The notes beneath the pieces were generated by a model that worked only from the letters and a program-made list of their open reading frames with translations, was not told the DNA's origin and made no database searches. Made by a program: the position numbers and the translations under genes. DNA of 64,000 bases from Candidatus Oxydemutatoraceae bacterium (GTDB taxonomy: Bacteria > Pseudomonadota > Gammaproteobacteria > Poriferisulfidales > Oxydemutatoraceae), in assembly GCA_965211995.1 (NCBI GenBank), contig OZ243040.1, forward strand, positions 1,100,249 to 1,164,248, written 5' to 3'. Position 1 is the first letter of the stretch, and every line of letters begins with the position of its first letter. This document shows positions 8,443 through 45,346 of this stretch, piece after piece.

Positions 8443-10586
8443 CGCGCCGCGCCGGAGTCGCCGGAGTCGGCGGATTCAAGTCTGAAGCGCGACGCCGGCC
8501 CGTCATCCTCCGGCGCCCGCCCGCGTTGTCTTGTGTGTTTCCCCCCGCCGGCCGGGCCGCACCCGGCCGGGTCGCCCTCAGGGGCGGAGTGATCTGCAGC
8601 AACCCCCCCGGCTTGTTTTTGCCGCACTTCGGGCCGGAAGTTGGCGCCGCTCAGGTAGGGGCGCAGCGAGTGCAACTGCTCGCAACGTTTCATCGGCGGC
8701 AGGCTGTTCAGGATAAGCTTGCCGTAACTGCGCGTGCGCAGGCGCTTGTCGCCGATCATCACCACCCCGATATCGGTTTCGTCGCGGATCAGGCGCCCGA
8801 TCCCCTGGCGCAGCGAGATCACCGCTTCGGGCAGCGTCGCTTCCCTGAAAAAATCGCGCCCCTGCTCTTTCGCCTTGTGAATGCGCCCCCGCGTCAGCGG
8901 ATCGGAGGGCGACGCAAAGGGCAGGCGGTCTATGATCACGCAGCGCAGCCCGGCGCCGCGCACGTCGACGCCTTCCCAGAACCCCGCGGTGCCGAGCAGC
9001 ACCGCGTTCGACGTACTGCAAAAGCGCCGGATCAGTTCAACCTTCGGCGCGCTCCCCTGCACCAGCAGCGTGTAGTCGGTTTCGTCGGCGATCTTTCTCG
9101 AGGCCGCCTGCAGCGCGCGGTGGCTCGTGAACAGAAAGAACACGCCCCCCTGAGCCATCTCGAGCAAACGATAGCCGGTTTCGATCACGCCGGCGGTATG
9201 CTCGGGGTCGTTCGGGTCGGGCAAATTCGACGGCACGTACAAGGCGGCCTGCTCGGCGTAGTCGAACGGGCTGTCGAGCGCGACGCGGGCGCAACTCTCA
9301 GCCAGCCCGGTCTGCGCCAGAAAATAAGTGAAGTCGCCGCCGAGCGACAAAGTCGCCGAGGTGTAGATCCAGTTCGCGTCGTACAACTTGTGCTTGTCGC
9401 TGAGCAGCGGTGCGACGTCGGTCGGGCTCGCGTACAAACGAAAAGAGTTGCGCCCGGTCTGATACCAGCCGACCCGGTCGCCGCCGCTCTCGAGCACCTC
9501 GGCAAACCGCCGCCGCATGTCTTCAGCGCGATCCCACAGGTTGAACAACTGCTCGGACTGTCGCCGCAGGGGCTGCAACGCGCCCGCGAGTTGTTCGAGT
9601 GCGGCGGCGAGCACGCGCCGCGCCGCGGCGACGTCGTCTTGCCCGAGGGCGACGGCGGTGGTCTCCCGCACGGGCAATTGACCGAGCGCACTCATCATCG
9701 TCGCGATCGCCGACTCCAATTCCACGGCGGCGCTCATCAACTCCGGCGTTTTTGCCGCGTCGCCCGCGGCGCGTATATCGCGCAGCAACCACAGGCACTG
9801 AGAACTGGTGAACGAGATGCTGAAAAAGTGATTGGCGATGCCGCCCAACTGATGCGCCTCATCTATGATTACGGTGTCAACCTGAGGCAGCAATTGACCG
9901 AAGCCTTCCTCCCTGAGCGTCATATCCGCGAGCAGCAGGTAATGGTTGACGACGACGAGGTCGGCTTGCAGCGCGCGGTTTCTCGCGGCGGCGACGCAAC
10001 ATTCGTCGAACTTCGGGCAGCGGGCGCCGAGACAGTTTTCAGACGTCGAGGTCAGCGACGCCCACAGCGGGTCGTTTTCGCTGAGGCCGCCGAAGTCGCT
10101 GATGTCGCCGCCCGCGGCGGTCTTCGACCAGCGATAGACGCGCTCGACCATGCCGTTGTCGTCGGCGTCGAGCGCGCGCGTCCGCCACGCCTGCTCCAGG
10201 CGCTCGGCGCACAGGTAGTTGGCTCTGCCTTTGAGCAGCGCGGTGTCGGCGGCGATGCCGAGCGCCTTCAGCACCAGCGGCAGATCCTTGGTGTAGATCT
10301 GATCCTGCAAGTAGCGCGTGCCGGTCGAAATCACGACCTTCTTGCCCGACAGCACCGCAGGCACGAGATAAGCGAAAGTCTTGCCGACGCCGGTGCCGGC
10401 TTCGATCACGAGGTTGCCGCCGTTTTCGATCGCGTAGGCGACGCGGCGCGTCATCGTCTCCTGTTGCGGGCGGCTGCGAAACCCCGGCACCAGCGACGCA
10501 AACGGCCCGTCGGCGGCCAGCAGCCGGCTGCATTCATCGGCGAACGCCCTCGCCGACGCCCGCTTGGATGGCGGCACTCGCGCCAT
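8439..10586 (-). CDS. yoaA: DinG/YoaA-family Fe-S ATP-dependent DNA helicase with a 3' extension derived from the element
   Basis: Walker A (AGTGVGKT), DEAH box (IIDEAHQL) and a Cys cluster (NYLC, CLGARCPKFDECC). Adjacent to tsaB, as yoaA is in E. coli. The last roughly 65 aa are encoded by element copy A. Confidence 0.85.
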   Translation of the reverse strand: MARVPPSKRASARAFADECSRLLAADGPFASLVPGFRSRPQQETMTRRVAYAIENGGNLVIEAGTGVGKTFAYLVPAVLSGKKVVISTGTRYLQDQIYTKDLPLVLKALGIAADTALLKGRANYLCAERLEQAWRTRALDADDNGMVERVYRWSKTAAGGDISDFGGLSENDPLWASLTSTSENCLGARCPKFDECCVAAARNRALQADLVVVNHYLLLADMTLREEGFGQLLPQVDTVIIDEAHQLGGIANHFFSISFTSSQCLWLLRDIRAAGDAAKTPELMSAAVELESAIATMMSALGQLPVRETTAVALGQDDVAAARRVLAAALEQLAGALQPLRRQSEQLFNLWDRAEDMRRRFAEVLESGGDRVGWYQTGRNSFRLYASPTDVAPLLSDKHKLYDANWIYTSATLSLGGDFTYFLAQTGLAESCARVALDSPFDYAEQAALYVPSNLPDPNDPEHTAGVIETGYRLLEMAQGGVFFLFTSHRALQAASRKIADETDYTLLVQGSAPKVELIRRFCSTSNAVLLGTAGFWEGVDVRGAGLRCVIIDRLPFASPSDPLTRGRIHKAKEQGRDFFREATLPEAVISLRQGIGRLIRDETDIGVVMIGDKRLRTRSYGKLILNSLPPMKRCEQLHSLRPYLSGANFRPEVRQKQAGGVAADHSAPEGDPAGCGPAGGGKHTRQRGRAPEDDGPASRFRLESADSGDSGAAR
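8470..8643 (-). mobile_element. Palindromic TIR element, copy A (forms the 3' tail of the yoaA ORF)
   Basis: Aligns with the other six copies: ...CAAGTCTGAAGCGCGACGCCGGCCCGTCATCCTCCGG...GCCGCACTTCGGGCCGGAAG. Confidence 0.8.
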
Positions 10587-10634
10587 AACGTATCCATCTC
10601 CCCGCGTTCAACGCGTCTTATCGCCGCCGCGCAA

Positions 10635-11117
10635 TCACCCGCCGCCCGCCCGTGCGAGCGAAACCACGGCGAACGCGGCGACCCCCTCGCCGCGCCCGGT
10701 GAACCCGAGGCCGTCGGCGCTGGTAGCCTTAATACTGACACAGTCAAGCCCTATCCCGAGGTCGCAGGCGACGAGCGGTCGTATTTCAGGGATAAACGGC
10801 GCGAGACGCGGTTTTTCGGCCACCACGGTCGCATCCACGTTGACGACGGCAAGCCCCGCGTCCGCGATCAGCGCCAGCGTGCGCCTCAGCAAATCGCGGC
10901 CGGCGACGCCCCGGTGCCGCTCGTCGTTCGGATAATGCGTGCCGAGATCGCCGAGCGCGGCGGCGCCGAGCAAGGCGTCGCACAGCGCGTGCAACAGCAC
11001 GTCGCCGTCGGAATGGGCGACGATGCCGCGCTCAAACGGGATGCGCACGCCGCCGAGCATGAAGCCGTCGCCGTCGCCAAACGCATGTGCGTCGAAACCG
11101 AAACCCACCCTTATCAT
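10635..11117 (-). CDS. ispF: 2-C-methyl-D-erythritol 2,4-cyclodiphosphate synthase
   Basis: MIRVGFGFDAHAF...AHSDGDVLLHALCDALLGA, typical of IspF. Start taken at the ATG at 11117. Confidence 0.93.
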   Translation of the reverse strand: MIRVGFGFDAHAFGDGDGFMLGGVRIPFERGIVAHSDGDVLLHALCDALLGAAALGDLGTHYPNDERHRGVAGRDLLRRTLALIADAGLAVVNVDATVVAEKPRLAPFIPEIRPLVACDLGIGLDCVSIKATSADGLGFTGRGEGVAAFAVVSLARAGGG

Positions 11118-11423
11118 CGCGCCGCCCCCGTGCCTGCATCCTGGTGCGTGCATTATCCGCCGGGCGCATCCGGCGGGGCGACGCGTGCGAGCCAGGCCTC
11201 GATCAAAGGCAACTCGTGCGGATACGTCAGTTTGACGTTCGCGCCGCCGCCCGGTGCGTGCGCATCAAAACCAAAGCCCGCCCTCGTCATCACCTTGCCC
11301 CCGTGCCCGCATCCTGGTGCGTGCGTTATCCGCCGGGCGCGTCCGGCGGGGCGGCGCGTGCGAGCCAAGCCTCGATCAAAGGCAACTCGTGCGGATACGT
11401 CAGTTTGACGTTCGCGCCGTCGC
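11075..11423 (-). repeat. Tandem duplication (2 x 173 bp) of the ispD 3' end / ispF 5' end junction
   Basis: GATACGTCAGTTTGACGTTCGCGCCG occurs at 11221 and again at 11394 (period 173). The flanking sequence aligns at roughly 90% identity. Confidence 0.88.
11153..11290 (-). other. Chimeric 45-codon ORF created by the duplication (ispF start fused to the ispD C-terminus)
   Basis: MTRAGFGFDAHAPGG (a copy of the ispF N-terminus) joined to GANVKLTYPHELPLIEAWLARVAPPDAPGG* (a copy of the ispD C-terminus). Its upstream context matches that of the true ispF start. Confidence 0.6.
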
Positions 11424-44800: not shown

Positions 44801-45095
44801 CGATCTTGCCGTCGTTGAGCACCATGCCGCCGATCAACTGCGCGTCGAAATGGCGCATGCCGAGCGTCCTGCGCGCGGCTTCCCTGACCACCGCAAACGC
44901 CTCAGGCAACAGCGCCTGCCGCGATTCCCCCTGCGCCAGGCGCGCACGGAACTCGTCGGTTTTGGCGCGCAACCCGGCGTCGTCGAGGGCGCGGCAACCG
45001 TCCTCGAGCGCGTTGATCGCGCCGACCGTCTTCGCGTAGCGCTTGATCAGCCGCTCGTTGCGGCTCGACAGCAGTTTTTTGAGGAATCCCGCCAC
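41847..45095 (-). CDS. secA: Preprotein translocase ATPase SecA, with an 11-aa tandem array and an in-frame element insertion in the variable region
   Basis: 1082 aa. Contains [62 protein letters not shown] and the C-terminal zinc finger [17 protein letters not shown] start with an upstream GGAG. Confidence 0.96.
43185..43360 (-). mobile_element. Palindromic TIR element, copy F (inside secA, in frame)
   Basis: CCAAGACTGACCTGCGACGTGGGTCCGTCGTCCTCCGG...CCCCCTCAAGGGGAGAGTGATTCTCAGCGGCCTGCTCCGCTTCCCTTTGGCGTGCTTCGGATTGG. Confidence 0.85.
43361..43555 (-). repeat. About 5.9 x 33-bp in-frame tandem repeat in secA (11-aa unit [11 protein letters not shown])
   Basis: Units start at 43361, 43394, 43427, 43460, 43493 and 43526. 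The protein reads [63 protein letters not shown]. Confidence 0.9.
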
Positions 45096-45169
45096 GGCTC
45101 ACTCCAATCTTCGCCGCCTAGTGTAGCGAAAACCGCGGCGGCCATTCACGCACCGGCACCCGGAAGATG

Positions 45170-45346
45170 CCGGCTTCCGGCCCGGAGTACGACCAAAGCC
45201 GGCAGCGCAGGCCGCTGAAAATCACTCCGCCCTCAAGGGAAAGCCGGCCGGATTGCGCCCGGCCGGCGGAGGGAAACACAAAAGACGGCGCGGGCGGACA
45301 CCGGAGGATGACGGGCCGGCGCCGCACTTCAAACTTGAATCCGGCG
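45170..45346 (+). mobile_element. Palindromic TIR element, copy G (inverted; 5' of secA)
   Basis: ...GGCCGCTGAAAATCACTCCGCCCTCAAGGGAAAGCCGGCCGGATTGCGCCCGGCCGGCGGAGGG...GGAGGATGACGGGCCGGCGCCGCACTTCAAACTTGAATCCGG. Confidence 0.85.

Follow-up and report, generated by a model that had tools for sequence, protein, structure and literature searches.

The stretch considered here is a 64-kb window (64,000 nucleotides) of the genome of Candidatus Oxydemutatoraceae bacterium, a gammaproteobacterium, taken from a contig of 1,943,614 bp (1.94 Mb); in what follows, "the window" means this whole stretch. It contains seven copies (c1 to c7) of a repeat of about 177 bp, which lie partly between genes and partly inside them. 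Read-through in a shared orientation and reading frame is seen for four copies, within secA, tilS, yoaA and a gene for a NUDIX/ThiE-like fusion protein, and a further copy supplies the 3' end of the last of these genes. All host genes are encoded by the minus strand. The copies (with E-values from nhmmer), their hosts and a tandem array abutting one of them are as follows:

Copy c1: 8469..8645, plus strand, 177 bp, E = 2.4e-46; yoaA residues 648-706, extending the C-terminal tail.
Copy c2: 16332..16507, plus strand, 176 bp with a 1-bp deletion, E = 8.9e-45; intergenic, between tilS and pyrG.
Copy c3: 17513..17689, plus strand, 177 bp, E = 6.2e-45; in frame in tilS, residues 86-144.
Copy c4: 39952..40125, plus strand, 174 bp with an in-frame 3-bp deletion, E = 1.3e-44; linker of the NUDIX/ThiE-like protein, residues 161-218.
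Copy c5: 43185..43361, plus strand, 177 bp, E = 3e-46; in frame in secA, residues 579-637.
Copy c6: 39304..39479, minus strand (inverted), 176 bp with indels, E = 1.1e-42; 3' end of the NUDIX/ThiE-like gene.
Copy c7: 45169..45345, minus strand (inverted), 177 bp, E = 8.7e-48; intergenic, between an M23 peptidase gene and secA.
Gene yoaA: 8439..10586, minus strand, 715 residues; NCBIfam repair_DEAH_YoaA, 744.5 bits against a cut-off of 680.
Gene tilS: 16517..17944, minus strand, 475 residues; Pfam ATP_bind_3, TilS and TilS_C, and matches in the Protein Data Bank (PDB).
NUDIX/ThiE-like fusion gene: 39463..40605, minus strand, 380 residues; Pfam and NCBIfam PRK08999; c4 internal, c6 at the 3' end.
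Gene secA: 41847..45095, minus strand, 1082 residues; Pfam SecA domains and alignment with relatives.
Tandem array of a 33-bp unit: 43361..43554, 5.9 copies, in frame, in the SecA loop (Tandem Repeats Finder).

The seven segments align over about 180 columns with a mean column identity of 74% (MAFFT). A profile built from them returns seven matches in the window at E = 1e-42 to 9e-48, with the next best at E = 0.82, and this nhmmer profile finds no eighth copy in the 64 kb. A preliminary description of this DNA, made from the letters alone, had proposed that the seven segments form one family; the alignment and the profile search bear this out, and the refined ends differ from the coordinates first proposed by only 0-3 bp. 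Compared in pairs, the copies are 68-81% identical (mean 75%, differences of 19-32%), and their divergence from the consensus is even, at 24-27 of 177 sites per copy, with c6 standing at 38.

All copies share the ends GCCGG...CCGGC, which belong to a terminal inverted repeat of 25 bases (end sequence GCCGGATTCAAGTCTGAAGTGCGGC) that matches at 21 of 25 positions in the consensus and at 10-18 of 25 in individual copies. Random window positions at equal spacing give 6.8±2.4 matches of 25, so that the imperfect terminal inverted repeats already noticed by eye are confirmed. Between the inverted ends lies a unique core of 127 bp, and the element also has an internal 9-bp GC hairpin (CCGGCCGGG/CCCGGCCGG), accompanied by two or three shorter hairpins. 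The word "palindromic", applied earlier to the whole element, holds for its ends and for these short hairpins and does not extend to the element in its entirety: c7, folded as single-stranded DNA, does only modestly better than its shuffles (z = -2.2), and the sense RNA of c5 is no better folded than its shuffles (z = -0.4). Compensatory changes are almost lacking from the consensus folds (3/47 and 5/48 pairs), and covariation contributes terms slightly above zero (+1.6 and +2.8 kcal/mol), which leaves the fold unsupported. No part of the window matches Rfam at gathering thresholds, and the window contains no tRNA genes. Hairpins with T-rich tails occur inside the read-through copies always on the strand antisense to the host gene, and in c6 and c7, both of which lie just 3' of genes, in the sense direction.

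The four copies in secA, tilS, the NUDIX/ThiE-like gene and yoaA share one orientation and one frame, as the preliminary description had stated, and encode an alignable peptide. The peptide runs to 58-59 residues, not the roughly 55 first given; it is rich in G, A, R, E and P, has 5 hydrophobic residues among 59 and carries a net charge of +1. The segment lies outside all Pfam families, and a profile of the peptide scores 88-102 bits on the window's own proteins. The lengths of the read-through copies (177, 177, 174 and 177 bp) are all divisible by three, and frame-breaking indels are found in two of the three other copies (176 and 176 bp). Three of the six consensus frames are open, two in the coding sense and one on the opposite strand (the third of these is often broken in single copies), and the remaining three contain conserved stop codons. 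The preliminary description was thus right to caution that frames in such GC-rich DNA are open by chance, and for this reason the case rests on the intact host genes that flank the copies and on orthologues that have no insert. Relative to the consensus, the read-through copies carry 32, 38 and 31 substitutions at codon positions 1, 2 and 3 (p = 0.65), and 68 of 88 changed codons are non-synonymous, a pattern indistinguishable from that of the other copies. This evenness over codon positions implies that the peptide drifts and that only the frame is kept. As far as the substitution pattern can tell, the peptide is neutral cargo, and the frame alone would be conserved. We infer that the inserts are translated. 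An intein or mini-intein was considered for the segment and dropped, since 59 residues are too short and the conserved splice-junction residues of inteins are lacking.

In secA, c5 lies in the loop that follows the TDIVLGG motif in the second ATPase domain, which we take to be a variable, dispensable subdomain of that domain. The insert is flanked by two stretches that match E. coli SecA, in which only about 8 residues separate them, and the protein of the window is 1082 residues long compared with 966-989 in its closest relatives. The 59-residue segment of c5 and a 66-residue stretch encoded by the 33-bp array are absent from all 12 aligned SecA relatives (64-79% identity), which include the closest six (75-79%, on contigs of 0.02-1.85 Mb). 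An AlphaFold model of this SecA, built from a 13-sequence alignment, has a mean predicted local distance difference test (pLDDT) score of 54.6; residues 517-635 fall below 50, as do other regions, and a helix appears with low confidence at the N-terminal end of the element peptide. The model, poor overall, weakly hints that the c5 loop may be disordered. As a separate observation, the 33-bp array that abuts c5 adds about 66 residues, bringing the total gain of the loop to about 125 residues. The array has no homology to the element; its derivation from the element end was considered and rejected, the apparent 75% match being carried by the array itself.

In tilS, c3 lies in the PP-loop ATPase domain and splits the ATP_bind_3 Pfam match into two stretches. 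Residues 12-81 and 91-404 of E. coli TilS align with residues 15-83 and 151-466 of the window protein, and in three solved TilS structures the flanks align with 6-9 residues in place of the insert. In yoaA, c1 begins two residues past the end of the YoaA family profile (residue 645), the homology to DinG having ended at residue 631. The copy does lie within the open reading frame (ORF) at its 3' end, as first described; it interrupts no domain and lengthens the C-terminal tail.

The NUDIX/ThiE-like gene has been entered twice. Copy c4 lies between its NUDIX and TMP-TENI domains (Pfam, residues 13-129 and 215-369), is absent from the orthologues at two relative loci (L001 and L002), and contributes to a length of 380 residues, compared with 299-334 in relatives. 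Copy c6 was inserted two codons 5' of the native stop, and its inverted-repeat end now encodes ...RRVQI and a stop, the TGA lying inside the end of c6. In four relatives (L002-L005) the c6 site is empty and the gene ends ...CF-x-x-stop in a TGTGATA context. The window keeps this context downstream, the order being ...CF, 11 bp, c6, 48 bp and then the context. The earlier count of four coding copies therefore stands for the copies that are read through, and c6 adds a fifth that supplies last codons and a stop, so that 5 of the 7 copies contribute coding sequence. The two copies are inverted with respect to each other and bracket 472 bp of the ThiE-like domain, which might suggest a composite transposon; this was rejected, since relatives have the same fusion without the element. 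The inverted arrangement looks like coincidence, and it could promote inversion. We note in passing a tandem triplication at one relative locus (L003, 14282-16166), where upstream of the NUDIX/ThiE-like gene the NUDIX domain has two extra copies as ORFs of 153 residues.

The two remaining copies are intergenic. Copy c2 is flanked by the stop codon of tilS at 16517 and by the likely start of pyrG near 16240, which was placed on the basis of a CTP_synth_N match that begins at residue 87 of a long ORF. Copy c7 lies between the stop of an M23 peptidase gene and a conserved block upstream of secA (GTTTTCGCTACACTA), which is common to the window and three relatives and of which TACACT is invariant in 6/6 sequences. 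In three of five relative loci (L001, L003 and L004) the c7 site is empty and the intergenic region short. Both c6 and c7 occupy sites some 25-60 bp longer than those of relatives; a longer element shared by these two copies was considered and rejected, as their flanks have only 9 bp in common. Mapped by sequence, the coding sites are thus a variable loop of SecA, a loop of TilS, an inter-domain linker and a C-terminal tail; the sole structure model is that of SecA, with the low mean pLDDT given above.

These comparisons bear directly on whether the segments are insertions or old parts of the proteins. Five syntenic 23-kb loci from relatives (L001-L005, about 115 kb) contain no copy of the element by profile search (best E = 0.92), and the matching part of the window contains four; at four or five of these loci an empty site can be recognised. 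The SecA of 12 relatives, the NUDIX/ThiE-like protein of L001 and L002 and TilS in three structures all lack the insert, in line with the proposal that the inserts are lineage-specific; ancestral linkers retained in orthologues, the outcome that would have spoken for the opposite, were not seen among the aligned orthologues. Among named organisms, Methylohalomonas and Thiohalobacter have the most similar SecA, at 64% identity. As an aside, the five loci, at 75-79% SecA identity and with the same gene order, vary in GC content from 42.6 to 65.5% over the syntenic 23 kb, an unusually wide spread for a tight group of small genomes (longest contigs 1.7-1.85 Mb).

Beyond the window, an exhaustive search of 1.84 billion protein representatives with the peptide profile gave eight hits, six of them real, and all six real hits lie on the same 1,943,614-bp contig as the SecA of the window. 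They comprise a riboflavin synthase (P0129) with an internal insert in the same frame, a GspB-like protein (matched weakly, with a score that does not reach the curated cut-off), a fragment from the C-terminal part of lysyl-tRNA synthetase in which the copy is frame-shifted, two ORFs spanning copies, and a protein of 409 residues (P0127). The last contains three tandem 80-residue units, each consisting of an element copy and about 21 residues of SecA flank, and the units are 66-67% identical to SecA residues 575-656. It looks, from its sequence, like a partial secA duplication that carried an element copy along, and the composition of its units implies that at least one copy was duplicated together with host DNA. 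The residues of P0127 that resemble the SecA flank read ADWWAWHEAVVAAG, and its N-terminal segment is hydrophobic and possibly signal-like. An NHSPLEGES motif in an unrelated restriction-subunit protein (P0131) was set aside as a short hairpin-encoded match, plausibly due to chance. Among 185,579 species genomes, no copy was found with an exact DNA pattern (which recovers 3/7 window copies) or with the back-translated peptide; two scans of the metagenomes of the Joint Genome Institute (JGI), the second with a pattern that recovers 4/7 window copies, gave no match, nor did plasmid and phage collections. The view that the element belongs to no described family is upheld by these searches and by Rfam, the peptide being found only on the source contig, and the family looks confined to the source lineage. 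Scaling from 7 copies per 64 kb to 1.94 Mb, an extrapolation, would give about 200 copies genome-wide, or about 2% of the genome.

As to how the element moved, the 30 window ORFs scanned against Pfam encode no transposase domain, RAYT (the IS200-like REP-associated tyrosine transposase) included, in agreement with the earlier statement that no transposase is associated; the remaining window ORFs follow the cell-wall and division gene order seen in relatives. The window contains no longer element with the same ends and no extra match to the inverted end. The flanks of the seven copies show no similarity to one another except for one short low-scoring match, and direct flanking repeats occur only at c3 (GGC) and c6 (TC), which is compatible with chance. 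A very short target-site duplication could have decayed in old copies. Inverted ends as well defined as these suggest that an enzyme acted in trans, and transposition would be the suggested mode of spread; as no target-site duplication is present, more than one type of enzyme may be responsible, and there is room for spread by recombination, of which P0127 provides a hint.

We interpret these observations as the traces of a selfish, non-autonomous repeat that is tolerated in frame at permissive sites, a reading to which we assign a probability of roughly 0.8. A 177-bp (59-codon) repeat would have multiplied in this small GC-rich lineage, probably in a single old burst, with which the similar distance of the copies from the consensus fits. 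Because gene density is high, most insertions would have fallen into genes, and those that survived would be the ones that caused no frame shift, that took an orientation and frame without stop codons and encoding a hydrophilic Gly/Ala/Arg/Glu/Pro-rich peptide, and that struck a protein site able to tolerate an extra loop, be it a variable loop at the surface, a linker between domains or the tail at the C-terminus. The peptide would then be translated as passive cargo, with selection keeping the reading frame alone. In the opposite orientation the element has stop codons and T-rich-tailed hairpins, and copies so placed occur only at intergenic sites or at the extreme 3' end of a gene; judging from the small sample of four read-through copies, orientation appears to be filtered by stop codons and possibly also by the terminator-like features.

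Several points weigh against this reading. With neither a transposase nor a longer same-ended element in the window, transposition itself is inferred. No consistent target-site duplication of 2-9 bp was found at the seven copies, inside the assumed ends included; copies that are 68-81% identical give no sign of recent movement; and the c6 site has 59 bp of unexplained extra flank relative to relatives. The closest relatives free of the insert are distant (79% SecA identity) and therefore set only loose limits on when the invasion took place. That the inserts are translated is predicted from sequence, and the use of one frame rests on four copies, which would all share a frame by chance in about 1 in 27 cases if three frames were equally usable.

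Among the other explanations, the one with the most to recommend it is spread without any transposase, by recombination, gene conversion or segmental duplication of fragments that bore the element. It would explain the missing target-site duplication; P0127 shows at least one copy that moved with flanking DNA, and the window holds several other tandem duplications. We nevertheless consider it unlikely, because end bases are identical in all seven copies, the inverted ends are as sharply defined as is typical of enzyme-cut elements, and the target genes are unrelated, with flanks that have nothing in common beyond the one short low-scoring match. Slightly less probable still is that the element is mainly a functional signal in RNA or DNA (for instance a transcription terminator, a hairpin that stabilises mRNA or the gene of a small RNA, in the manner of REP and ERIC sequences) whose genic copies are by-products. 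The sense-direction hairpins with T-rich tails in c6 and c7, downstream of genes, and the somewhat greater foldability of c7 as single-stranded DNA are what one would expect of such a signal; the sense RNA of c5 folds like its shuffles, however, compensatory pairs are as scarce as reported above, Rfam has no match, and 5 of the 7 copies overlap coding sequence. Terminator-like sites, moreover, number 12 between 39 and 45.6 kb (c4-c7) against 5.8±2.9 in shuffles, only about a twofold excess, and 11 in a second region against 8.3±3.0.

That the segment is instead a protein module, either an ancestral linker or a functional disordered domain that was shuffled at the coding level and kept for its function, we regard as very improbable and as already largely refuted. 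The single frame of all four read-through copies would suit it, as would the maintenance of lengths divisible by three (down to the in-frame 3-bp deletion in c4) and the low-confidence helix at the N-terminal end of the peptide in the SecA model. Against this stand three copies outside the read-through frame, two of them inverted and intergenic or at a gene end, together with the absence of the segment from orthologues and from every Pfam family, its restriction to one genome, and substitutions that, just like those of the non-coding copies, are spread evenly over codon positions and for the most part non-synonymous. Least credible of all is an artefact of sequencing or of long-read metagenome assembly, for instance an adapter, a chimeric join or a repeat that was collapsed. 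The contig names of the relatives are typical of long-read metagenome assemblies, and the source may be of the same kind; an artefact should yield identical copies and disrupt genes, whereas these copies differ by 19-32% and keep the host frames, with lengths of 58 or 59 codons.

The behaviour of the element invites comparison with that of the Rickettsia palindromic elements (RPEs; RPE-1 and related families), described by Ogata et al. in 2000 and 2002 according to PMC10969869 and PMC3184786. The likeness was suggested in the preliminary description and is sustained by the in-frame copies, in one frame, in SecA, TilS, the NUDIX/ThiE-like protein, YoaA and riboflavin synthase. Both kinds of element measure about 100-180 bp, lack a transposase and occur between genes as well as inside unrelated housekeeping genes; in both, the genic copies are in frame with a conserved family peptide, the host proteins appear functional, the genic share is large and the host genome is small. 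To our knowledge, RPEs likewise have no target-site duplications and no known mobilising enzyme. They differ in that the present host is a GC-rich gammaproteobacterium and that of RPEs an AT-rich alphaproteobacterium, and in that the present element has clear 25-bp inverted ends, is only weakly palindromic overall and comes so far from one genome. No sequence kinship to RPEs was found by the peptide profile search, which included Rickettsia proteomes and which is not a direct DNA comparison with an RPE consensus. In-frame fusion of repeats with host genes has been reported in several bacteria, with RPEs singled out for its frequency (PMC10969869, PMC3184786), and in-frame insertion is known from RPEs and, less often, from other MITEs, or miniature inverted-repeat transposable elements (PMC10969869, PMC3184786, PMC5896051).

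The label MITE/REP-like, used for the element at the outset, applies insofar as it is non-autonomous and has inverted ends; membership among MITEs is not supported, as neither a target-site duplication nor, in the window, a parent insertion sequence was found, and the comparison with REP and REPIN sequences also fails. Bacterial MITEs known to form fusions with ORFs of their hosts (Coxiella QMITE1/2, PMC5896051; ERIC and YPAL, Delihas 2007; Anabaena, Wolk 2010) resemble the element in their terminal inverted repeats, many copies and lack of a transposase. Their size of 150-400 bp includes that of the element (174-177 bp), and they sometimes extend over the 3' end of a gene and give it new C-terminal residues and a stop, as c6 and c1 do. 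Those MITEs have target-site duplications, which in the Coxiella QMITEs measure 2-3 or 7-11 nt, and the QMITEs lie mostly at gene (3') ends or in hypothetical ORFs (PMC5896051); the element, in contrast, has no such duplication and is found within essential enzymes (SecA, TilS, riboflavin synthase), in their domains or loops. With REP and REPIN sequences, which are mobilised by RAYT, it has in common GC-rich, hairpin-forming sequence and two inverted end modules. REP and REPIN insertion is likewise not known to leave a target-site duplication. REPs, however, are 20-40 bp long, have a GTAG or CGTC head and are extragenic (PMC3733652), whereas the element is 177 bp long, has no GTAG or CGTC head at its ends and is mostly genic, 5 of 7 copies overlapping coding sequence. 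On these sequence comparisons we regard the element as a new family, unrelated to RPEs but similar to them in behaviour.

A more far-reaching proposal, which we put forward tentatively and at somewhat less than even odds, is that the element is an independent, convergent counterpart of RPEs that is adapted to coding sequence, with 59 codons, stop-free frames in the coding sense, a hydrophilic and probably disordered peptide and no target-site duplication. If so, such traits would allow multiplication in a reduced, gene-dense genome almost without intergenic space, and protein-coding palindromes would be a strategy that selfish DNA adopts repeatedly in small genomes, not a peculiarity of Rickettsia; with the extrapolated 200 or so copies, the source genome may hold dozens of reshaped essential proteins. 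The colonisation of essential genes by a repeat in frame is textbook material for Rickettsia and has been held nearly unique to that genus, and a 2024 review of MITEs only speculated on its occurrence elsewhere. The present genome, unrelated, small and rich in GC, provides a second clear case, which would show that it recurs where gene density leaves no other room. The inserts are also natural experiments on the tolerance of SecA, TilS and riboflavin synthase for an extra loop, and in practical terms they lengthen proteins and can mislead annotation and orthology assignment in metagenome-assembled genomes.

The window has several other features. Upstream of valS, four tandem copies of a 137-bp unit (93% matches) occupy 2215-2757; each unit comprises the upstream region and the first 23 or so codons, and of the ATG codons only the last, at 2704, shares the reading frame of the ValRS body. 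At 11069-11414, a 173-bp tandem duplication, whose two copies have 87% identity, bridges the junction at which ispD ends and ispF starts, and by profile search it is unrelated to the 177-bp element. A low-GC island (about 26500-35500; 56-58% GC, with flanks of 66-70%) lies between lpxB and hflC and holds genes for a GtrA-like protein, an epimerase, an amine oxidase, two proteins without a Pfam match and one with collagen and RCC1 repeats, whose gene contains 120-bp tandem repeats at 31904-32477. At one relative locus (L004) lpxB adjoins DUF2065 and hflC, and for this reason the island looks acquired. Finally, the region 6000-8000 has a GC content of 55% and includes a lone gene for a D12-class N6-adenine DNA methyltransferase (6372-7421, minus strand).

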